Shown piece after piece: positions 54-12,413 of a stretch of 64,000 bases of DNA. Positions within the stretch are counted from its first letter, which is position 1. Each line of letters starts with the position of its first letter. Location: contig CBDUYR010000006.1 of assembly GCA_965371515.1 (NCBI GenBank), positions 1 to 64,000 on the forward strand, written 5' to 3'. This DNA comes from an uncultured bacterium. GTDB taxonomy: Bacteria > Krumholzibacteriota > Krumholzibacteriia > Krumholzibacteriales > Krumholzibacteriaceae. Made by a program: the position numbers and the translations under genes. The notes below the pieces were generated by a model that did not search any database, was not told the DNA's origin, and saw only the letters and a list, made by a program, of their open reading frames with translations.

Positions 54-3000
54 TTACCTCAGAAGTACCATCTTTTGGGTGGTCCCGAGCTGACGTCCAT
101 CGGAGAGCACCCTGTAGAAGTAGATGCCGCTCGCTACCGTACTGCCCCTGCTGTTGCTGCCGTTCCAGGGGATCGACACGGGACCGTTCGAGCAGTAGCC
201 TCTGTCGATAGCATTGACAAGAGCGCCGCGCACGTCATAGATACGCAGCTCCACGCTTCCGGGCCTGTCGAGATTGAACCGGACCTCGGTGCTGGGATTG
301 AATGGGTTCGGCCAGGCGCGCATATCGAGAGAAACCGGCTCGTCGGCCTCTGCTACGACTTCACGCGCACCCTCTGCGTTGGCCACCGGCATGACAGGAG
401 GAGGGACTATGTCGACCCATAGTCCTACCCCGATCTCGGGATCGTCGGGATCATCGCTGGATATAGTCAACGCCTCATAGTGTGTGCCGGCAGGTGCACT
501 CGTCAGGAGCTTCACGGCCACCTCGTACGACTCACCCGGATCGACAGTGAATGGTGTGGCCGTTACCACTTCAAACATACTTGGAAGACTCGACTCGAGA
601 TCCGTCACCGTCAGCGTATGTCCCTCGCAGCCGATGTTTTGAACATCGAACATCATTGTAATCGGTTTGAAATAGTACAGGAGGGTGCCCCAGTCGAGTT
701 TATTGACCGATGTAGTGATATGGCTTGCCGGAAGCACCGTCATGCTGAGCGGGAATTCGACCACGTCGTTTTCAGGATCGGTTGACCTGATCGTCAAAAT
801 GCCGGCCAGATCCTCGTTGCAGTAGCCACGTGCATCGAAGGTGACTTCAACGACCAGCGAATCACCAGGCGCGATCGACTCGACCGATGTCGAAAGTGTT
901 GCCCACTCGGGGATCCCGAAATATCCAAGTATGACATTGAGCTGATAACCGCCGTTGTTGTATATCGTCATGGTCTCCTGATGGACGGCTTCTGTATACA
1001 CGAGAGCGCTGAGCTCGGTTGGAACAAGGACCATCTCGGGCGGCGTTACACCCTCTCCTGAGAGTTGGATTACGGTCGTCTCCGGACCCTCGTCGCCGAA
1101 TGTGTTGATGCTCAGCGTCCCGTAGATCTCTCCGTAGCTCGACGGGGCGAAGGTTACCTGCACCGGTATCGTTGCCTCGGCAGGGACCAACGTCAGTTGA
1201 GTAACAGAGAAGTCCGGATTGTCGAGCACCAGACTCATGATCGGGAGAGACTCGCAACCGAGGTTGGTGATGAAGACTAAAGCCTCCTCATTGCTGCCTA
1301 CGATAACCGGCCCGTAGTTGATGTAGGCTGGATCCACGGCCATCTTCGCGTCCCCGGAGACGGTGAGCTCGAGCGGCAGCGTGACGAGGGGATCGCTCTC
1401 GTCGTTGCTCGCGACCTCGACGTACGCCGAGTTCTCGCCGCAGGGAAAGTCGTCGACTCCGACAAAGAGTATTACCGTCCTGCTGTCCCCCGGCTGAATC
1501 GATCCGGAGGTGGGATAGCAGGTGATCGAAGGGAACTCGGCGGGAATAACGACCTCATAGTCCAGTGTGCCCACGCCGTTGTTCTCGATCTCGAAGGGAA
1601 GCTGGTTCAGGATCCACTTCTCCGTTGCTGCAACGATCGTTGTCGGATCCAGCGCTATCTCGGGGGGACCAAGGGTCGTGAAACCCTTGACCTTCGTGAT
1701 GCCTGACACGTTATCGCTGTAATCGCCGCCGAGCCGATAGTAGTAGGAGCCCCATTCATCGAAAACGCGGAAAGCTATGTAATAAGTTGTCCCCTGTTCG
1801 AGGCCGTCGATGACGAAGGTCTCCTTGGTGCCGGCTTGCTGAGGATCGGGGACCGGTTCGATCAACGCAGCCTGCTCGAACTGCTTAGTGTTACGTATGG
1901 GGATGGTCGCGTAGCGGAACTCGTATTCGCTCGCCGTTCCGTCACCGCCGTCGTCGCCCGTGGCCGTCCATTCGAGCTCTATCCAGTTGCTCGCCACTTC
2001 CTTTACCGTCACCCTGCGGATCGTTGCTGGAGCGGCGTAATCGGGATCGGCAATGGCCAGGAATGCGTTGACCCTGCCCCCGGAAACGCACTTGTCCTTG
2101 AGAGATTCGAGAGGGTCGACCATATCGAGCAATCTTGCCTTGAAATCGATGCCGCTTTCAGGGCCTGCCTTGGCAATCATCAGAGCCAGAACTCCACTGA
2201 TATAAGGTGTGGAACAAGAGGTGCCCACTAAACTAGTATAACCGCCGCCCGGTTCGCAGACCCTCCCGGTGATGGGTGCTCCGAGATCGACAGATATAGC
2301 CCCATAGTTAAAGACCTGATCATCTGCTACATTCGTTCCTGTTACACCAATGATCTTATCGTACTCAAAACAAACCGGATACCTTGGGTAGATATCAAGA
2401 TCATAGCTCTGATTATGAGCCGCACAAGCCATATAGATTCCGGCCGCGTCCGCCTGCAGGCACGCCAGAGAGAATAGATCCAGATCTTCTGTTGTGCCAA
2501 AACTCATGTTCAGGACATCTACATCCATACTTATAGCATATTCTATCGCCTCTATAATGTGGCTCGTCGGCCAATCAGCAGACGCGGCGGCAACATCCAA
2601 TGGCATTATACTTACTTCCCAGCACACACCGGAGACACCGATACCGTTATCCGTGTCAGCGCCAATGATGCTGGCACACATAGTCCCATGACCAGAGTCA
2701 TCTACCGGGTGAGGAGAATTGTTCCAGAAATTCCATCCATGGAAATCATCGACATATCCGTTGTCGTCGTCGTCGATATTGTTGCCCGGTATTTCTCCGG
2801 GATTATAATAAATGTTGTCCTCTAAATCGGGATGATAAATATCTACGCCGGAATCGATCACGCCGACGATGACCGTCTTTGAACCACGATGTATGTCCCA
2901 GGCATGCACGGCACGAATATCGATGTTGGGCAGATAGGGCGGCTCTAACGTATTGTGCAGCGGCCACGAAGGAAATAGCGGGTCATTCGGTATCTCCGCC

Positions 3001-3317
3001 GGCTCGAAATAGACATTGGGCTCGATGAACTCGATGTGGGGGTGTCCCCTGAACCGCGAAAGCGCCTCTTCGACCGTCATGCCGTTCAGCCGGTGGTGTG
3101 AGGCACCAATGAACTCGAACTCCTTTATCTTCGTAGCGCCCATCTCCCTCAGCACTCCGTTGCGCTGAGTCGTTGTCGCTGACTCCTTGAACTTGATAAG
3201 GACCTCGCCAGGCGCGTAGCGCGCCTCATCGGCGAAAGCGGGGAACATCGCCCCTATAAGCAGAAATCCAAGGATACAGAAAACAAGAGCTCGAAACTGA
3301 AACCTCATCGATAACAT
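54..3317 (-). CDS. Secreted S8 (subtilisin-like) serine peptidase with FN3/Ig-like domains and C-terminal FlgD-Ig sorting domain
   Basis: Signal peptide; PGEVLIKFK propeptide; triad motifs VIDSG, HGTMCA, GTSCSTP; C-terminal WPNPFNP...GIYFYR; SD GGGGGAGG upstream. Confidence 0.93.
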   Translation of the reverse strand: MLSMRFQFRALVFCILGFLLIGAMFPAFADEARYAPGEVLIKFKESATTTQRNGVLREMGATKIKEFEFIGASHHRLNGMTVEEALSRFRGHPHIEFIEPNVYFEPAEIPNDPLFPSWPLHNTLEPPYLPNIDIRAVHAWDIHRGSKTVIVGVIDSGVDIYHPDLEDNIYYNPGEIPGNNIDDDDNGYVDDFHGWNFWNNSPHPVDDSGHGTMCASIIGADTDNGIGVSGVCWEVSIMPLDVAAASADWPTSHIIEAIEYAISMDVDVLNMSFGTTEDLDLFSLACLQADAAGIYMACAAHNQSYDLDIYPRYPVCFEYDKIIGVTGTNVADDQVFNYGAISVDLGAPITGRVCEPGGGYTSLVGTSCSTPYISGVLALMIAKAGPESGIDFKARLLDMVDPLESLKDKCVSGGRVNAFLAIADPDYAAPATIRRVTVKEVASNWIELEWTATGDDGGDGTASEYEFRYATIPIRNTKQFEQAALIEPVPDPQQAGTKETFVIDGLEQGTTYYIAFRVFDEWGSYYYRLGGDYSDNVSGITKVKGFTTLGPPEIALDPTTIVAATEKWILNQLPFEIENNGVGTLDYEVVIPAEFPSITCYPTSGSIQPGDSRTVILFVGVDDFPCGENSAYVEVASNDESDPLVTLPLELTVSGDAKMAVDPAYINYGPVIVGSNEEALVFITNLGCESLPIMSLVLDNPDFSVTQLTLVPAEATIPVQVTFAPSSYGEIYGTLSINTFGDEGPETTVIQLSGEGVTPPEMVLVPTELSALVYTEAVHQETMTIYNNGGYQLNVILGYFGIPEWATLSTSVESIAPGDSLVVEVTFDARGYCNEDLAGILTIRSTDPENDVVEFPLSMTVLPASHITTSVNKLDWGTLLYYFKPITMMFDVQNIGCEGHTLTVTDLESSLPSMFEVVTATPFTVDPGESYEVAVKLLTSAPAGTHYEALTISSDDPDDPEIGVGLWVDIVPPPVMPVANAEGAREVVAEADEPVSLDMRAWPNPFNPSTEVRFNLDRPGSVELRIYDVRGALVNAIDRGYCSNGPVSIPWNGSNSRGSTVASGIYFYRVLSDGRQLGTTQKMVLLR

Positions 3318-3594
3318 TATGGCCTCCCCCTCTATGCAAACTTACGGGAAACTAACTTAAAACGATTCCTATAATCCTCGTTGCAGACTCGACTACCCCC
3401 TTTCTCCACATAGGGAAGAGACGGAATGGAGACTGTTATTACGAAGATAAAAAAATATTTAAATCAGTTGAAATTACTCGCGTTGCTGAATCGCGGGATC
3501 AATTTTCAGGTGAAGTCCAGGTGATTCCATTTCAGACAATCTCTCGGGGGCTTCGAGAAACGTTTCAAACCCCATGACGACGGGCATTTAATCC

Positions 3595-3623
3595 TTGATG
3601 GAGGGTATATCATCAAATATATT
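3595..3623 (+). promoter_or_regulatory. sigma70-like promoter for glnA, overlapped by palindrome TTGATG-N10-CATCAA
   Basis: TTGATG (3595-3600), 17-nt spacer, TATATT (3618-3623); inverted repeat 3595-3616. Confidence 0.5.
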
Positions 3624-3698
3624 GGAAATCCGCGCCCACGCCCCCGGCCGGGAGTGTGAGGCCATCTCCGAACGTATTGAAAACAGGGGGGTTGTGCT

Positions 3699-5108
3699 AT
3701 TTTTACCTCTATCACGAAACTCAAGTCCGAGATCAAGCGGCAGGGCATCAAGCTCGTCGACCTCAAGTTCACCGATTTTCTGGGCCGCTGGCACCGCCTG
3801 ACCGTCCCGGCATCGAGCGCCGACAACAGGCTCTTCTCAGTCGGCCTCGGATTTGATGGCTCGAACTTCGCCGGCCTCAAGACTGTCGAACTCGGCGACC
3901 TCTCCCTCGTACCCGACCTTTCGACGGGATTCGTCGATCCGTTCAGCGCCATCCCGACTGTCTGCTTCATCTGCGACATCGTCGAGGCCGACTCGAAGAA
4001 ACCCTTCCCCCGCGACCCGAGACATATCGCCCGTAAGGCTGAGGCGTTCCTCAAGAAGACCGCCATCGCCGACCTCTCGCTTTGGGGCCCCGAGTTCGAG
4101 TACTACGTATTCGACGAGGTACTCGTCGACACCTCGAACCTCAGCTTCGGCTACGAGATCGCCCCGTGCGAGGGCGAGAACAAGGGTAGTTTCGGTCTGA
4201 AGACGCACGGCGGCTATCACGCGCTGCCCCCCGAGGACAAGCTCGCCGGGATTCGCGACCGCACCGTCGTCCTGCTCGAGGAAGCGGGCATCGGGATCAA
4301 GTACCACCATCACGAGGTGGGCGGTCACGGCCAGGGTGAGATCGAGGTCGAGTTTGCGCCGCTGACAAAGATGGGCGACATCTCGATGATCGTTAAGTAT
4401 TTTGTGCGCATGGCCGCCGACGAGGCGGGGATGATCGCGACATTCATGCCCAAGCCGATACACAACGAGGCGGGCAACGGGATGCACTTTCACCAGCACC
4501 TGTTCAAGAAGGGCAAGCCGCTGTTCTACAGCAAGTCGGGTTATGCCGGGCTTAGCAGGACGGCGCTTCAGTACATCGCCGGACTGCTCCACCACTCCCC
4601 CGCCCTGCTCGCGCTGACAAACCCAAGCACGAACTCGTACAAGCGTCTGGTGCCCGGCTTCGAGGCGCCGGTCAACGCCTTCTTCTCGCTCGGCAACAGG
4701 TCGGCCGCTATCAGGATCCCGAAATACGCGTCGTCACCGGAGAAGAAGAGGCTCGAGTTCAGGCCCCCCGACGCGACGGGGAACATCTACCTCTCGATGG
4801 CCGCGCAGCTGATGGCCGGCATCGACGGCATCCGCAACAAGCTCGACCCGAAAGAACTGGGATTCGGACCGCTCGAGGTAAACGTGTTCGAGATGACCGA
4901 CAAGGAGCGCGGGAAGATCAAGTCACTGCCCGGCTCGCTCTCCGAGGCGCTGCACGCGCTGGAGAAGGACTACGAGTTCCTCCTGCAGGGCGACGTCTTC
5001 GACGCGACGATGATAGAGGACTGGATCGCATTGAAATTCGACAAGGACGTAATGCCGGTGCGAAACCGCACCCATCCGCTCGAGGTCCAGCTCTACCTCG
5101 ACTGCTGA
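3699..5108 (+). CDS. glnA: Glutamine synthetase type I (469 aa, apparent ATT start)
   Basis: Frame of the 4317..5108 ORF stays open back to TGA at 3678-3680; it encodes IKLVDLKFTDFLGRWH, GFDGS, RDPR, GPEFEYY, HHHEV, FMPKP, NGMHFHQ, NSYKRLVPGFEAP, NRSAAIRIP, RLEFRPPD; SD AGGGGGG lies 7 nt before ATT TTT ACC. Confidence 0.93.
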   Translation: MFTSITKLKSEIKRQGIKLVDLKFTDFLGRWHRLTVPASSADNRLFSVGLGFDGSNFAGLKTVELGDLSLVPDLSTGFVDPFSAIPTVCFICDIVEADSKKPFPRDPRHIARKAEAFLKKTAIADLSLWGPEFEYYVFDEVLVDTSNLSFGYEIAPCEGENKGSFGLKTHGGYHALPPEDKLAGIRDRTVVLLEEAGIGIKYHHHEVGGHGQGEIEVEFAPLTKMGDISMIVKYFVRMAADEAGMIATFMPKPIHNEAGNGMHFHQHLFKKGKPLFYSKSGYAGLSRTALQYIAGLLHHSPALLALTNPSTNSYKRLVPGFEAPVNAFFSLGNRSAAIRIPKYASSPEKKRLEFRPPDATGNIYLSMAAQLMAGIDGIRNKLDPKELGFGPLEVNVFEMTDKERGKIKSLPGSLSEALHALEKDYEFLLQGDVFDATMIEDWIALKFDKDVMPVRNRTHPLEVQLYLDC

Positions 5109-5130
5109 TATTCAGGGAAGGGAGCAACGG

Positions 5131-7047
5131 GTGACCGAATTCCGACAACTTGGCGAGATGACGCTCGAGGACTACCAGGCGATTGGGATGAAGAGCGGCC
5201 TCGAGATACACCAGCAGCTCGACACCGAGAAGAAGCTTTTCTGCCGCTGCCCCATCCTTCCCTACAGCGATAAAGTCGACGCGCAGATCCTCCGGCACAT
5301 GCGGCCCACACTCTCCGAGCTGGGCGAGTACGACGGCACCGCCCTGATGGAGTTCAAGACAAAGAAAAACATCACCTACCAGATAAACAAGAAAACGGTC
5401 TGCACGTACGAGATGGACGACACGCCGCCTTTCGAGCTCAACCAGCAGGCGCTCGAGATCGCGCTCGAGATCACGATGCTGCTCAACTGCAAGCTCGTCA
5501 GCGAGATTCACATCGCCCGCAAGCAGTACCTCGACGGATCGATCCCGACCGGATTCCAGCGCACGACTATACTCGGCGTCGACGGCTGGATACCGTACGG
5601 CGACAGGAAGATCGGCATCATCCAGCTCGGACTCGAGGAAGACGCCTGCCGAGAGGTCAGCGATATCGGCCACGAACGGATTTACATGACCGACCGCCTC
5701 GGCATCCCCCTTATAGAGACAGTCACATATCCCGAGATGCGCACCCCGCAGGAGGTCGCCGACGTCGCCCAGGTCATCAGGTACCTCACCCGCTCGACGG
5801 GCAAGGTCCGCACCGGCATCGGGCGGACGAGACAGGACGTAAACGTGTCCGTCACTGGCGGACGAAGGGTCGAGATCAAGGGCGTTCCGCGCATCCCGAT
5901 GATCCCGCTGCTCGTCCATAACGAGGCGTTCAGGCAGCTCGCGCTTCTCGACATAAAGAAGACCCTCAACGACCGGGGTGTCACAGAAGAGACATTCGAG
6001 TATGACTCGGTAGAGATCACCGACATCTTCAAGGGAACACAGTACTACCCCGTCGCCAAGGCGCTGAAAGACAGCCTCGAGGTCCATGCGGTCGTACTGC
6101 GCGGCTTTCGCGGCATCCTGTCGACGAAGATACAACCGGAGACGACATTCTCGAAGGAGATTTCGGACCGCGTGCGCGTCGTCGCCTGCCTCGACAGACT
6201 GCCCAACATCGCTCACTCGGACAGCGAGGGCGAGACATTCTCGAGCGCCGAGTGGACGAAGATAAAAAAGCATGCGAAAATGGGCAACGACGACGTTATC
6301 GTGATCGTCTGGGGCGGCGAGGACGACGTCAGGATGGGTGTCAGTGAGATCGCGCTGCGCGCGAAGGAAGCGGCGATCGGCGTCCCCGACGAGACGCGCC
6401 AGGCGCTGGCCGACGGGACGAACGGATTCGAAAGGATTCTGCCCGGCCCGAACAGGATGTATCCCGATACCGATCTGCCGCCGATCGCGATCACCGACGA
6501 GCGCATAGAGCGTATCAGATCGACCCTGGCAGAGCTCTCATGGGACAGACAGAAACGGTACGAGGGTATGGGGCTCGACAAGGAAACGGCGCGCAGAATG
6601 AGCATCTCGAAGCGCAGGGATGCCTTCGACGAGGCAGTATCGAAAACAAAGTACGAGCCGGCCACAGTGGCAGAACTGCTGCTCGGCGGACTGCGGAGAC
6701 TGCGACGACGAGACGGCGTGCAGGAATGCAGCGACGAGGTATTCGTCCAGACTCTGGTCGAGGCCGGTGAAAAGAAGCTGCCGAAAACAAGCCTGGAGGT
6801 GCTTCTCGCGAAGACGTGCGGCCCCGACGGAATAGATCCGTCTAAGACAGCAACCGCGTTCGAGATCCTCGACGCGAAGGCGCTGGAGAAAAAGATGAAA
6901 AAGTTCGCGGGCTCCCTCGAGCTCCCCGACATAGAACGAGATAAACTGGTAAGGTACCTGACCGGCCGGATGGCCACCGAGTTCAGGGGATATATCACGG
7001 GCCGTGAGGCATTCGATTTCGCGGGCCGTTTCGTCGCGTCTGAATAA
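5131..7047 (+). CDS. gatE: Glu-tRNA(Gln) amidotransferase subunit E (archaeal-type)
   Basis: GLEIHQQLDT.KKLFCRCP, RKQYLDGSIPTGFQRT, LEEDACR, DRLGIPLIE, RQDVNVS, GVPDETR, RMYPDTDLPP; 638 aa with the central AspRS-like insertion that GatB lacks. Confidence 0.92.
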   Translation: MTEFRQLGEMTLEDYQAIGMKSGLEIHQQLDTEKKLFCRCPILPYSDKVDAQILRHMRPTLSELGEYDGTALMEFKTKKNITYQINKKTVCTYEMDDTPPFELNQQALEIALEITMLLNCKLVSEIHIARKQYLDGSIPTGFQRTTILGVDGWIPYGDRKIGIIQLGLEEDACREVSDIGHERIYMTDRLGIPLIETVTYPEMRTPQEVADVAQVIRYLTRSTGKVRTGIGRTRQDVNVSVTGGRRVEIKGVPRIPMIPLLVHNEAFRQLALLDIKKTLNDRGVTEETFEYDSVEITDIFKGTQYYPVAKALKDSLEVHAVVLRGFRGILSTKIQPETTFSKEISDRVRVVACLDRLPNIAHSDSEGETFSSAEWTKIKKHAKMGNDDVIVIVWGGEDDVRMGVSEIALRAKEAAIGVPDETRQALADGTNGFERILPGPNRMYPDTDLPPIAITDERIERIRSTLAELSWDRQKRYEGMGLDKETARRMSISKRRDAFDEAVSKTKYEPATVAELLLGGLRRLRRRDGVQECSDEVFVQTLVEAGEKKLPKTSLEVLLAKTCGPDGIDPSKTATAFEILDAKALEKKMKKFAGSLELPDIERDKLVRYLTGRMATEFRGYITGREAFDFAGRFVASE

Positions 7048-7062
7048 ACGGCGCGAAGGAAG

Positions 7063-8457
7063 GTGATCGCACTGGGCAGCGATATCTACAAGGGATACAG
7101 TGGCGAAGCGCTGGAATGCCTGAAGAAGTTCGAGGCCGGTGTCTGGTTCGACGTAGAGGTCAACTCGACACGCGGCAATTTCAGGGGGATCATACTCCCC
7201 AGATCCGAGACCGCCGACAACAATCACATAGTGCTCAAGCTCGACACCGGCTACAACGTCGGCCTGGCAGTCGGCACGATCGAGACGATGACAACGCACG
7301 GCAAGCGTGAGGCACATTACAAGATCCCCGAGAAGGAATTCCCTTTCGACCCGAAGAAACCGACGGTCAAGCTCCTCGGCACAGGTGGCACGATCGCCTC
7401 GAGGCTCGACTACCGCACCGGCGCCGTTATCCCGGCGTTCACCCCGGGAGAGCTCTACGGCTCCGTTCCAGAACTAGCCGACATCTGCAATCTGGAGACG
7501 GAGAAGATGTACGGCGTATTCAGCGAGAACATGGGCCCCGAACAGTGGATAGGAACAGCCGAGAAGATCGGCGAGGAGATCAAGAAGGGTGTCAGCGGAG
7601 TCGTGATAGGCCACGGCACCGACACGATGCACCACACCGCGGCGATACTCTCGTTCATGGTGCAGGACTCGCCGGTACCGATCGTCATGGTCGGTTCCCA
7701 GCGCTCCAGCGACCGCCCGTCGAGCGATGCGGCCTTGAATCTGATACATGCGACGCGCACCGCCGCCTACAGCGACTTCGCCGAGGTGATGGTCTGCATG
7801 TTCGGCCCGACGAGCGACCAGTACGCCCTGCTCCACAGGGGAACACGCGTACGCAAGATGCACTCGTCGTACAGGTCTACATTCAGGACGATCGGCGACA
7901 TCCCCCTGGCGATGGTCGACCGCAAGAAATTCACGCCGCTGCGCGACGACATCAAGAAGCGCCGCAGCGACAGGAACGTGACGATCAACACGGCATTCGA
8001 CGACCGCATCTCGATCGTGTACTACTACCCCGCCATGAAACCGGACATCATCGATTCGCTGATCGACAACGGGTACAAGGGAATCGTTATCGCAGGTACT
8101 GGACTGGGGCATGTCAACAAGCCCCTCTACCCATCGCTCAAAAGAGCGTTCGACGAGGGGATCCATGTATACATGGCCGTTCAGACGCTCTGGGGGTACG
8201 TGCAGATGTACGTATACGACACGGGGCGCGACATGATGGATCTCGGTGTCATACCCGGCGCCAACATGCTGCCCGAGGTAGCGTACATGAAGCTCGGATG
8301 GGCGCTCGGCCAGAGCCAGGATCGCGAAGAAGTGAAGAAGATCATGCTGACCCCGATCGCAGGCGAAATCACCGAGAGGGAGCCACATAATGGCTACCTG
8401 ATCTACCAGGGCGGCATTCCCGAGGTCGAAGAGTTCATCAGCCAGTACAAAAAATAG
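7063..8457 (+). CDS. gatD: Glu-tRNA(Gln) amidotransferase subunit D (asparaginase-like glutaminase)
   Basis: GatD-specific N-domain (GIILPR...HIVLKLDTGYNVG) plus GTGGTIASRLDYRTGAV, HGTDTM, GSQRSSDRPSSDA, RKMHS. Confidence 0.93.
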   Translation: MIALGSDIYKGYSGEALECLKKFEAGVWFDVEVNSTRGNFRGIILPRSETADNNHIVLKLDTGYNVGLAVGTIETMTTHGKREAHYKIPEKEFPFDPKKPTVKLLGTGGTIASRLDYRTGAVIPAFTPGELYGSVPELADICNLETEKMYGVFSENMGPEQWIGTAEKIGEEIKKGVSGVVIGHGTDTMHHTAAILSFMVQDSPVPIVMVGSQRSSDRPSSDAALNLIHATRTAAYSDFAEVMVCMFGPTSDQYALLHRGTRVRKMHSSYRSTFRTIGDIPLAMVDRKKFTPLRDDIKKRRSDRNVTINTAFDDRISIVYYYPAMKPDIIDSLIDNGYKGIVIAGTGLGHVNKPLYPSLKRAFDEGIHVYMAVQTLWGYVQMYVYDTGRDMMDLGVIPGANMLPEVAYMKLGWALGQSQDREEVKKIMLTPIAGEITEREPHNGYLIYQGGIPEVEEFISQYKK

Positions 8458-10109: not shown

Positions 10110-10835
10110 TTATGGTTTTAATAGAATATAAAATACTGCCATGTGAAGGAATCCAAATCGCTTCTCAAGCATTTGATAGTTCATCTTGTGAATAAATTCT
10201 TCAGTGATGAACTTCTCTAGTCTTCTATAGTCAAAACCTAAATGTGGCCCATACCCTTGTTTCTGCGGATCTCTAAATATATCAATGCTTTTGTTAAACA
10301 TGAGATGCGAAAAATATTTAAACTTTGATTGGTTCTGGAAAAAATCCTCGTAAGGGTTTCGACGCACTAACTGTCTGCCTAAGAATTTCACTAGTCCAGG
10401 CATTCCTATCTCATTCGGAATACCAATTACCAATATCCCCCCGCTTGCCAAATGATTATTTAGGTTAATCAGTGCTTCCTTATATGAACCTACATGCTCC
10501 AGTGTTTCAAAGCATGTTACCAATTCAAATTCTTCTTTGGGCCGCTCAATATTATTAAGGTTGTACTTAATAAATTCTGTCGATGGAAGATTCTTCTCCC
10601 TGCCCAGATTTAACAATTCTTCCTTATGGTCATATCCAACGATTCTCGAGAAATCACAATTGCCACTCCGGATCATATATTCGATGATATATCCATTTGA
10701 ACAACCAAAATCCGCCCAGCTTGTCTTAGTAAATGCTCCGTGATGTAAAAGTATTCTTAGAATAGATTTTAATCTAGCCCTGTGGGAGAATGATACAAAT
10801 CCCCTTCCCTTATATGAGTTCTCATGGATAATCAT
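10110..10835 (-). CDS. Class I SAM-dependent methyltransferase (AT-rich)
   Basis: DFGCSNG motif I, CFETLEHV, LASGGILVIGIPN. Confidence 0.85.
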   Translation of the reverse strand: MIIHENSYKGRGFVSFSHRARLKSILRILLHHGAFTKTSWADFGCSNGYIIEYMIRSGNCDFSRIVGYDHKEELLNLGREKNLPSTEFIKYNLNNIERPKEEFELVTCFETLEHVGSYKEALINLNNHLASGGILVIGIPNEIGMPGLVKFLGRQLVRRNPYEDFFQNQSKFKYFSHLMFNKSIDIFRDPQKQGYGPHLGFDYRRLEKFITEEFIHKMNYQMLEKRFGFLHMAVFYILLKP

Positions 10836-10994: not shown

Positions 10995-11099
10995 CGTAAA
11001 TTTCTGTTTACATTCAGGTAACCTATCGTTTACATAATAACCATCAATTTATAAAGATGTTACGGGGATTCGCAAAATGTACGTAAAGAAACGTTTACA
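10995..11099. promoter_or_regulatory. Three copies of imperfect palindrome SGTAAM-N6-TTTACA (candidate enhancer-binding-protein sites)
   Basis: CGTAAATTTCTGTTTACA (10995-11012), GGTAACCTATCGTTTACA (11017-11034), CGTAAAGAAACGTTTACA (11082-11099). Confidence 0.6.
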
Positions 11100-11217
11100 T
11101 TTCTCATTTTCCGTTTCGCTCGAATCGTGCTGTTCGGCGAAAAATATAAATTTTTATCTCCTTATAATACAATAAGTTAAAACTTTTAAGGGAACGATGA
11201 GGAACAATAGGGAATTA

Positions 11218-11233
11218 TGGCACGTCACTGGCT
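11218..11233 (+). promoter_or_regulatory. sigma54 (-24/-12) promoter
   Basis: TGGCACGTCACTGGCT, one mismatch from TGGCACG-N4-TTGCW, exact GG-N10-GC spacing. Confidence 0.75.
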
Positions 11234-11305
11234 ACTACAAGTAAGCGTGAGCAAGAACAATAAATACGAAGAAAGTTTTGGGAGTCTGAACGAAAGGGGT
11301 TGAAA

Positions 11306-11386
11306 ATGCTGCACTTCACAAGCATCGCGATGATCATAGCCCTTATGATCGCTGGCAAAAGTGTCTGGGGCAAGAGCGTCTGGTAA
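11306..11386 (+). CDS. Unannotated 26-aa peptide MLHFTSIAMIIALMIAGKSVWGKSVW
   Basis: SD AAGGGGT just upstream; hydrophobic N-half; GKSVW twice, with only synonymous differences (GGC AAA AGT GTC TGG / GGC AAG AGC GTC TGG); flanked by sigma54 promoter and terminator. Confidence 0.8.
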   Translation: MLHFTSIAMIIALMIAGKSVWGKSVW

Positions 11387-11402
11387 ATCCCGGAGACTCC
11401 AC

Positions 11403-11435
11403 AAGGCGGGGCACGAAAGTGTCCCGCCTTTTTTT
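11403..11435 (+). terminator. Rho-independent terminator
   Basis: AAGGCGGGGCAC-GAAA-GTGTCCCGCCTT followed by a T run. Confidence 0.9.
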
Positions 11436-11507
11436 ATACCCTCCCCGATGAAAATCTGCGTATATTCGTCCCCCGGGCATCGTTGACCACAAGAAAGGAT
11501 CGATAGA

Positions 11508-12413
11508 GTGAACAGGCTGCAGGCATACCTCATCGAGCTGAGGGCCCCGTTCCTCACAGTCAGCATCCTCCCCGTCATACTCGCCACGGCGATAGCGCGC
11601 TGCGATACGGGAATCTGGGATCCCCTTCTTTTCTGGCTGACGCTAGCCGGTGCTGTGCTCCTGCACCTCGGCTCCAATACGATAAACGACTGGTTCGATC
11701 ACAGGTCGGGCAACGACGAGGTCAATGTCGAGTTCGTCAGCCCCTTCACAGGCGGAAGCAGGATGATCCAGGCGGGATTCGTAACGCCTCGCGGGGTCCT
11801 CACTCTCTCGATAGCCCTGTTCACCCTGGCAACGCTTATCGGGATATATCTCTACACCGTCAGGGGACCGGCGATCATCCTCTTCGGGATCACCGGCCTC
11901 GTTCTCGGGATCCTCTATACCGCGCCGCGGGCGATGCTCGCCGGCCGGGGCCTGGGCGAGATCGTGATCTTCCTCGCATTCGGACTGATAGCCGTCGGAG
12001 CGTACTACGTACAGACCGGATACATATCGCGCCATATACTTGTCGCGCCGCTGCCGCTTGCTGTCTTCACAACGGCGATCATCATCGTCAACGAATTCCA
12101 GGACGCAACCGCAGACGGAATGACGGGCAAGAACACACTGATCGTTAGACTCGGTCGAAAGAGAGGCGTAGTCCTCTACGCGACAGTCATGCTGTCGGCG
12201 TACATCCCGATACTCGCCGGTGCCGCCGCCGGCCTGATGCCGCGCTGGACCTTCCTGGGCCTCGCCACACTCCCCGTGGCGCTCAAGGCGATCCAAGTCG
12301 CAGCGAAGAAGCACGACGACCCGCGCGCGATGACGCCGGCGAACGCCTCTACGATCATCGCACATCTGGCCACAGGAATTCTGCTGACGCTGGTCTATAT
12401 TCTGTCGGGATAA
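11508..12413 (+). CDS. menA: UbiA-family prenyltransferase, 1,4-dihydroxy-2-naphthoate octaprenyltransferase-like
   Basis: ELRAPFL, NDWFDHRSGND, YTAP...GLGE, NEFQD...D...GKNTLIVRLG; multi-TM. Confidence 0.8.
   Translation: MNRLQAYLIELRAPFLTVSILPVILATAIARCDTGIWDPLLFWLTLAGAVLLHLGSNTINDWFDHRSGNDEVNVEFVSPFTGGSRMIQAGFVTPRGVLTLSIALFTLATLIGIYLYTVRGPAIILFGITGLVLGILYTAPRAMLAGRGLGEIVIFLAFGLIAVGAYYVQTGYISRHILVAPLPLAVFTTAIIIVNEFQDATADGMTGKNTLIVRLGRKRGVVLYATVMLSAYIPILAGAAAGLMPRWTFLGLATLPVALKAIQVAAKKHDDPRAMTPANASTIIAHLATGILLTLVYILSG

Follow-up and report, generated by a model that had tools for sequence, protein, structure and literature searches.

Bacterial regulators can induce a product that feeds back on the regulator at the membrane, as in the PspF/PspA and MgrB systems. 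Systems of the RRNPP type are recognised, by the criteria given in PMC10075063, from a propeptide of 10-100 aa, Sec or SHP export, a TPR receptor of 250-500 aa, adjacency and receptor switching. In the Rgg/SHP and ComR/ComS systems of streptococci, as presented in PMC13361665, the gene for a short hydrophobic peptide, active through its C-terminal part, is induced by a cognate cytoplasmic regulator that is often adjacent, and Rap/Phr systems have a leader followed by repeated short units (PMC11343458). PEP-CTERM genes under PrsR form single-gene units with a sigma54 box and a repeated upstream enhancer, and their activator was found by shared distribution (PMC1569441). Several of these features recur at the locus described here, the likeness to PEP-CTERM/PrsR being one of layout. 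We report a peptide family of Krumholzibacteriota which, on comparative sequence evidence, appears to be the dedicated, main detectable product of a GAF-domain sigma54 activator.

Organization of the peptide gene

The features below were located in the window (the whole stretch of DNA analysed, 64,000 nt) and, for the likely activator, elsewhere in the same genome (G000).

10110-10835, - strand: AT-rich methyltransferase gene, between flippase gene and peptide promoter
10995-11012, + strand: enhancer palindrome 1, TGT[A/C]AA-N6-TT[T/G]ACA type, 18.5 bits, 223 bp before the -24 box
11017-11034, + strand: enhancer palindrome 2, 14.7 bits, 201 bp before the -24 box
11082-11099, + strand: enhancer palindrome 3, 19.6 bits, 136 bp before the -24 box
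11218-11233, + strand: sigma54 -24/-12 promoter TGGCACGTCACTGGCT, GG-N10-GC
11294-11299, + strand: Shine-Dalgarno sequence AAGGGG, 6 nt ahead of the ATG
11306-11386, + strand: peptide gene, 26 aa MLHFTSIAMIIALMIAGKSVWGKSVW and stop (ATG at 11306, TAA at 11384-11386)
11306-11353, + strand: hydrophobic N-terminal segment, residues 1-16, predicted single membrane helix
11354-11368, + strand: GKSVW unit 1, GGC AAA AGT GTC TGG
11369-11383, + strand: GKSVW unit 2, GGC AAG AGC GTC TGG
11403-11438, + strand: intrinsic terminator, 12-bp stem (8 G-C) and T-run
C91:378-2081, - strand: GAF-AAA+-HTH sigma54 activator, about 550 aa, sole clear orthologue in this genome

The earlier note had described the sigma54 promoter, Shine-Dalgarno sequence, 26-aa ORF and terminator as a self-contained unit, and all four elements are in place. 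The GG/GC box has the sigma54 pattern given in PMC1569441. A sigma54-like box lies 74-152 nt ahead of the start codon in homologues, and those homologues displayed also have a purine-rich Shine-Dalgarno sequence. The terminator sits between the peptide gene and a menA-like gene that follows at 11508. Read in all six frames, the 3.08-Mb genome contains GKSVW only at these two places, and the two copies differ only synonymously, as had been stated, at two sites.

Distribution and selection of the peptide family

By profile search the peptide is carried by 76 of 208 Krumholzibacteriota genomes, in five families and three orders: this genome, 35/42 genomes of family f1, 1/1 of f2, 8/8 of f3 (f1-f3 forming order 1), 20/23 of f6 and 11/13 of f9. 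A 17-sequence profile gave 76 genomes at E values up to 0.1, one of which (G129) was spurious on inspection, and a wider profile added G185, leaving 76 true carriers. The profile search found no convincing peptide in the genomes of f4 (91), f5 (7), f7 (12) and f8 (10); weak matches outside the five families (E 0.02-0.9), of which G129 and those near L183 and L186 were inspected, were dropped as chance. At the DNA level the gene has matches in 23 of 41 relatives, and an exact DNA pattern run over the GTDB collection gave 46 loci, 43 being the peptide gene. Titles of these loci that name a taxon mostly read Candidatus Krumholzibacteriota or Latescibacterota, and three non-Krumholzibacteriota loci (L083, L084 and L091), which have no hydrophobic leader or no frame, were dropped. 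Protein searches returned 191 matches of 13-104 aa, and all of the 120 matches listed belong to the family. Among 1.84 billion representatives 53 matches were found, 46 of them shorter than 100 aa; of the seven longer ones (HMMER), those inspected are simple repeats without a leader, and a search of longer proteins found no longer fused forms of the peptide.

The earlier note had proposed a search for conserved repeats in related genomes and held that a non-conserved reading frame would speak against the gene; the distribution above answers the former, and the frame is conserved across the five families. As figures that describe rather than test selection, since related genomes are not independent, pS is 0.52 and pN 0.07 (pN/pS 0.14) over 13 gap-free 26-aa genes, and identity at codon positions 1, 2 and 3 is 0.88, 0.95 and 0.67, compared with 0.61 in the 5'UTR and 0.50 in the 3'UTR (10 genes). 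The 116 GKSVW units of 72 distinct genes use all four Gly and all four Val codons, with Ser codons AGY in 105 and TCG in 11. Selection on the peptide, claimed from the two copies alone, is thus supported by the low pN/pS, by the use of both Ser codon families and by the higher conservation of codon positions 1-2 over the UTRs. These sequence comparisons confirm a genuine, protein-selected peptide gene under its own predicted sigma54 promoter.

Second copies, in tandem or dispersed, occur in G010, G015, G016, G023, G081 and several f9 genomes, the f9 copy being usually a single-unit form with its own promoter. At L146, L147 and L096 the second copy looks frameshifted, with the tail GKSVWMP kept and the leader out of frame.

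The peptide family is previously undescribed. It had not been recognised as a described family at first reading, and no family match was found in Pfam (best DUF2897, E 0.19), no match better than E 0.62 among PDB sequences and no usable peptide match in ESM Atlas. Two NCBIfam matches, to CcmC (E 0.001, 10 of 43 members) and to a transporter suffix (E 0.006, six members), are read as chance likeness of the helix and W-G words. The family is undescribed in the literature searched, where small-protein catalogues within supplements could hold it. The idea that the units are Trp-Gly tails as in subtilisin-like proteases found little backing; only one match (135 aa) was found among five longer candidates, and none of the long HMMER matches inspected resembled such a protease, a weak negative.

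Peptide anatomy and membrane topology

Members of the family are 21-59 aa long. After Met comes a short aromatic start, then a conserved Asn, replaced in some members by Ser or His, and a stretch of 11-12 hydrophobic residues; the units that follow have the consensus G-[K/N/Q]-[S/A]-[V/I/T/M]-W. Nine of 87 peptides have one unit, 57 have two, 19 have three, and one each has four and seven. Linkers between units (0-3 residues, mostly hydrophobic) and C-terminal extensions (0-3 residues) are both variable, and the range of 1-7 units with such linkers suggests that each unit behaves as a module. Many members continue beyond the last Trp, so that the earlier description of the peptide as Trp-terminated does not hold as a general trait. 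The first unit has the same G, K and W in 43/43 aligned members, rarer members have an altered unit G, and GKSVW is almost constant over the three orders.

The hydrophobic segment is itself conserved in sequence, with Asn and Ile nearly invariant. Such conservation is unlike a mere export leader. The best 15-residue Kyte-Doolittle mean is 1.2-2.7 (median 2.24, 60 peptides), and a predicted model of a 59-aa homologue has a helix at residues 4-31 (pLDDT 71-83 at residues 1-20) followed by a long, low-confidence, unstructured tail. The hydrophobic N-half reported at first is therefore general, but its A-G ending is found in only 15/60 distinct peptides. Likewise, of the suggestion that this half is an export leader or a membrane anchor, the anchor agrees with the hydrophobicity, and two features speak against a classical leader: K and R are absent from the first five residues in 34/60 peptides, and L, F or W stands at -3 of a presumed cut after Gly in 19/60. 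The 16-19 residues that precede the first unit are short for a helix. In 77/87 peptides the tail is the more basic end, in 10/87 the two ends are equally basic, and in none is the N-terminus the more basic. By the positive-inside rule a basic flank favours the cytoplasmic side, and a cytoplasmic tail is accordingly favoured.

Enhancer sites and the likely activator

The peptide promoter is preceded by three 18-bp palindromes, on which the earlier note had not remarked. Upstream of 54 peptide promoters, 145 such palindromes form three clusters near -220, -200 and -125/-135, with palindrome 1 at -215 to -230, palindrome 2 at -185 to -210, and palindrome 3 at -120/-125 and -135. The matrix was built from these 54 homologous promoters, and 10 further promoters with a missed or incomplete box pattern stand outside the set. 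The peptide promoter thus has a -24 GG/-12 GC box with palindromic sites 100-250 bp upstream, the arrangement of a sigma54 enhancer-dependent promoter. An AT-rich stretch at 11167-11179 of the window, about 45 bp before the -24 box, resembles an IHF site, judged by eye against the consensus; a similar stretch is seen in many homologues.

Of the sigma54 boxes of this genome, only those of the peptide and the activator have three palindromes (with the 45 most AT-rich of 394 sigma54-like boxes listed). The activator promoter has sites at -124, -194 and -214 and a fourth at +31, over its own start. Genome-wide, 29 single sites of at least 12 bits were found, most without a sigma54 box. At least two palindromes lie upstream of the activator in 15/16 f1/f2 loci, and none or one in 4/4 f3 loci; in G201 an activator with its own triple-site promoter lies behind the peptide. 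A strict enhancer-plus-promoter pattern gave 16 matches in 10 near-complete genomes (nine peptide, four activator, two mglA-like and one other), and its reversed control gave none. The peptide is the sole target detected in f3 and most f6 genomes. Other targets can exist, since the matrix was trained on peptide promoters and applied to this genome alone, and the strict pattern failed to pick up known sites, including the G007 peptide promoter. The mglA-like GTPase gene has one site at -122/-123 in 7/26 readable loci (of 30), weak in this genome; with its conserved sigma54 box (L220, G000:C19:51575-51872; L221-L227, L242) it is a possible third target.

The earlier note expected an activator encoded elsewhere in the genome, and the likely one is at C91:378-2081, which scores 674 bits as orthologue against 382 for the next protein. 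It consists of GAF, sigma54 AAA and Fis HTH domains, with neither a receiver domain nor a TPR family match. In 31/31 peptide-bearing f6 and f9 genomes, the activator follows a peptide copy on the same strand, no more than about 0.9 kb away, while in order 1, including this genome, the two genes do not adjoin. With activator presence taken as a GAF region at E below 1e-50, the 208 genomes divide into 70 with both, six with the peptide only, seven with the activator only and 125 with neither; as the five families may amount to no more than one or two clades, this shared distribution may reflect one or few events. All discordant genomes are drafts inside the five families, two of which (G072 and G073) hold fragments, and both genes are missing from all 120 genomes of f4, f5, f7 and f8. 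A whole-protein activator search gave the same families as the GAF-region search. Around more distant GAF-AAA proteins, the peptide lies beside 0/15 loci and at most one palindrome is present in 15/15.

From adjacency, shared sites and shared distribution, we strongly infer that the activator binds the palindromes, and it would thereby drive the peptide promoter; PrsR of the PEP-CTERM genes was identified by the same reasoning (PMC1569441). The three-palindrome promoters, together with adjacency and shared distribution, suggest that peptide and activator form a near two-gene regulon. Between orders the GAF region is 33-45% identical; GAF/AAA divergence ratios and a quick tree gave no clear sign that GAF and motif co-evolve and revealed no GAF-specific acceleration tracking the GNSTW lineage, and a fold search with the GAF model and ESM Atlas gave generic GAF domains only, with no ligand clue. 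A TPR-containing activator was also considered as partner and rejected, being present in 0/23 f6 genomes and weakly in 1/13 f9 genomes, a mismatched distribution.

Genomic neighbourhood

The peptide gene is flanked by the AT-rich methyltransferase gene on the opposite strand and the menA-like prenyltransferase gene, with a Wzx-like flippase gene and gatDE upstream. The methyltransferase gene (10110-10835) has no counterpart at the corresponding position in the mapped relatives and is likely a recent insertion. Positions 5131-8457 of the window encode a GatE-like protein (GatB_N and GAD) and a GatD-like protein (asparaginase and GatD_N), syntenic in relatives. The GatD/GatE pair is known as archaeal, and is here in a bacterium. 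The gene downstream of the peptide is menA-like in order 1 and the GAF-AAA+-HTH activator in f6 and f9; among 43 parsed of 44 metagenome loci, which overlap the genome set, the next gene is menA-like in 24, the activator in 13 and unknown in six.

In order 1, a gene divergent from the GAF activator encodes a 110-140-aa protein that starts like a signal peptide and contains a conserved (A)DPGEDPHL motif. It is followed by a TPR-sigma54 activator of about 820 aa at L117 (G000:C91 about 2580-5416), L118-L120, L125-L129, L132 and L134-L136. By sequence the two have the look of another peptide/TPR-receptor pair, RRNPP-like and working on sigma54; the small protein of the present genome seems by eye to be shorter and to be without the motif. 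In several genera (L121, L125, L130, L135 and L136), the gene for a HATPase-domain protein with no obvious sensor separates the GAF activator from the enhancer promoter. Many f6/f9 loci (L085, L101-L103, L105-L111, L054 and L076) have peptidase genes (M16 pair, PfpI, M2) immediately upstream of the peptide, which may be plain synteny. In genus g69 (L105-L110), a long 3' UTR ends in a conserved GCCGGGGAGA..CCACG before the terminator, a possible RNA element. At L250 (G000:C89:5414-7953), a PqqD-like protein is encoded directly behind an OPT-like oligopeptide transporter, with no adjoining radical SAM gene.

Possible function of the peptide

Tentatively, we favour a reading that is plausible though short of probable: the peptide would remain uncut and anchored in the membrane as a microprotein, with GKSVW units that face the cytoplasm and dock on a conserved partner, which may be the activator GAF domain. 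The activator, gated by its GAF region, would bind the palindromes and turn on the sigma54 promoter, so that a monocistronic mRNA of ~190 nt is made in a switch-like burst; it would also raise its own expression in f1, f2 and some f9. The peptide would insert uncut into the inner membrane as one helix, N-out/C-in, and each of its tandem units would dock independently on one and the same conserved protein. The acidic GAF region of the activator is the first candidate for this partner and would bring about membrane tethering and feedback on the loop; the second is another membrane or cytoplasmic target.

The charge bias, the conserved helix sequence, the fixed motif and the absence of a linked exporter or protease argue for this reading, and because GKSVW is near-constant across three orders a fixed partner is expected rather than a kin label. 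However, the helix is short, and repeated units with variable linkers fit a released peptide at least as well. In addition, the divergence of the GAF region between orders beside a nearly fixed motif argues against GAF as the partner, and the activator as only partner would leave a loop without output, which counts against pure feedback by an anchored microprotein and by an autoinducer alike.

A doubtful but close alternative is that the peptide is an autoinducer: the leader would be exported, a protease would cut before each Gly, and GKSVW with 0-3 further residues would be re-imported and read by the GAF domain or another receptor, giving a positive loop of the Rgg/SHP, ComRS and Rap/Phr kind. 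The anatomy of leader, 1-7 repeated units and variable linkers fits, the gene is duplicated in several genomes, and the residue before the unit is W, L, F, A, M, Y or V in 190/191 cases, a count that is largely built in by the Trp of the preceding unit and the helix end. Induction of the peptide gene by its own regulator follows the logic of Rgg/SHP and ComRS (PMC13361665), and tandem pheromone copies in one propeptide are described for Phr (PMC11343458). General uptake and protease routes are present in the genome, namely three family-5 solute-binding proteins, M50 peptidases and the OPT-like transporter, but C39 peptidase was not found in it, and the loci mapped have no conserved exporter or protease beside the gene. 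Moreover, lineage-specific pherotypes are missing over most of three orders, and the absent basic N-region and poor signal-peptidase -3 residues weigh here as well. Apart from the single mglA-like site, a density signal would have hardly any targets, and no peptide-binding GAF activator was found in the literature searched. The specific form in which cut GKSVW units bind the GAF domain of the sigma54 activator and drive its own gene and the peptide gene, with neither TPR protein nor histidine kinase, we consider unlikely.

Less probable again, and in our view improbable, is a metabolite-sensing activator that drives mass production of a peptide acting itself in or on the membrane, by self-assembly, surface coating, membrane-stress relief or antibacterial action; the Trp/Lys units would bind at lipid interfaces, where these two residues are typical. 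Three enhancers, a strong Shine-Dalgarno sequence and terminator, repeated gene duplication and the peptide as sole detected target in f3 and most f6 would all suit such a product. However, the near-invariance of the exact motif exceeds the needs of lipid binding, single-unit forms exist (9/87), and the long tail is unstructured in the model.

The earlier note also raised a RiPP-like precursor, modified in trans for example by linking Lys to Trp, as happens in the WGK (tryglysin) and KxxxW (streptide) families (PMC13361665). W-G-K at unit junctions and the invariant K and W speak for the idea, but it is very improbable: neighbour clusters and gene maps have no conserved radical SAM/SPASM, RRE or other modifying gene near the peptide gene, the sole nearby radical SAM gene is spore-photoproduct-lyase-like and confined to order 1, the one PqqD-like match of the genome adjoins the OPT-like transporter, and linkered and single-unit members are without W-G-K. 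Finally, although Trp codons lie just ahead of the terminator, a same-strand gene (menA-like or activator) comes next and 5'/3' UTR pairing is present in the own genus, a cis-acting Trp-sensing attenuator leader for that gene, or an sRNA with an incidental ORF (for the earlier note a refuting outcome), is barely credible, as the downstream gene varies by lineage, extra copies lie in unrelated contexts, selection is fully at the protein level with UTRs far less conserved than codon positions 1-2, family-wide UTR pairing above controls was not found (z below -2 in 9/105), and Rfam gave two chance-level matches (20 and 18.6 bits versus gathering scores of 36 and 58.7).

Comparison with known systems

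In an uncultured phylum, the locus adds an undescribed small-protein family that spans three orders, and its likely activator, enhancer and promoter are identified. It suggests a circuit of a new kind, in which control or signalling would be based on a peptide. Every part is short enough for the system to be reconstructed in a laboratory strain, so that it is directly testable outside its host. Gating of the GAF domain by the peptide would take peptide signalling past the RRNPP and two-component types known from Bacillota and would be a categorically new input for sigma54 activators; if the peptide is a pure effector, a whole activator would be devoted to one 26-residue product.

The likeness to PspF/PspA and MgrB lies in the presumed membrane feedback, and there is no sequence relation. 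As in the WGK/tryglysin and KxxxW/streptide peptides, a motif of Lys and Trp is present, with W-G-K at junctions, but the unit spacing is KxxW, in contrast to the KxxxW of the streptide family. No radical SAM maturase was found among 31 neighbour-cluster proteins, 10 window proteins and the gene maps, the rarer clusters being partly scanned; since there is no linked maturase and WGK is not kept in all members, the family is not a RaS-RiPP.

PrsR is a receiver-domain activator with the kinase PrsK and many large targets, whereas here a GAF activator has essentially one tiny target. The peptide has no match of PEP-CTERM type (PEP motif, TM helix and basic tail) in Pfam and NCBIfam; this, together with the lack of longer fused forms and of a receiver domain in the activator, indicates that it does not belong to the PEP-CTERM proteins.

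With regard to RRNPP systems, the length of the peptides falls within the propeptide range. The hydrophobic core would suit export, but the basic N-region is often missing and the -3/-1 pattern is mixed, and no SHP profile match was found in Pfam and NCBIfam. The GAF activator adjoins the peptide in f6 and f9 and not in order 1. The linked regulator has no TPR and, at about 550 aa, is too long, and for these reasons the peptide system is not of the RRNPP type; the nearby TPR activator is 819 aa, restricted to order 1 and nearly missing from f9. Unlike Rap/Phr, there is no co-distributed TPR receptor, the N-terminus looks unlike a typical Sec signal, and the motif is nearly invariant. Compared with Rgg/SHP and ComR/ComS, the regulator is a GAF-AAA+-HTH protein for sigma54, the host belongs to Krumholzibacteriota and no PptAB/Eep-type partner is linked. 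The peptide may still work like SHP or ComS.
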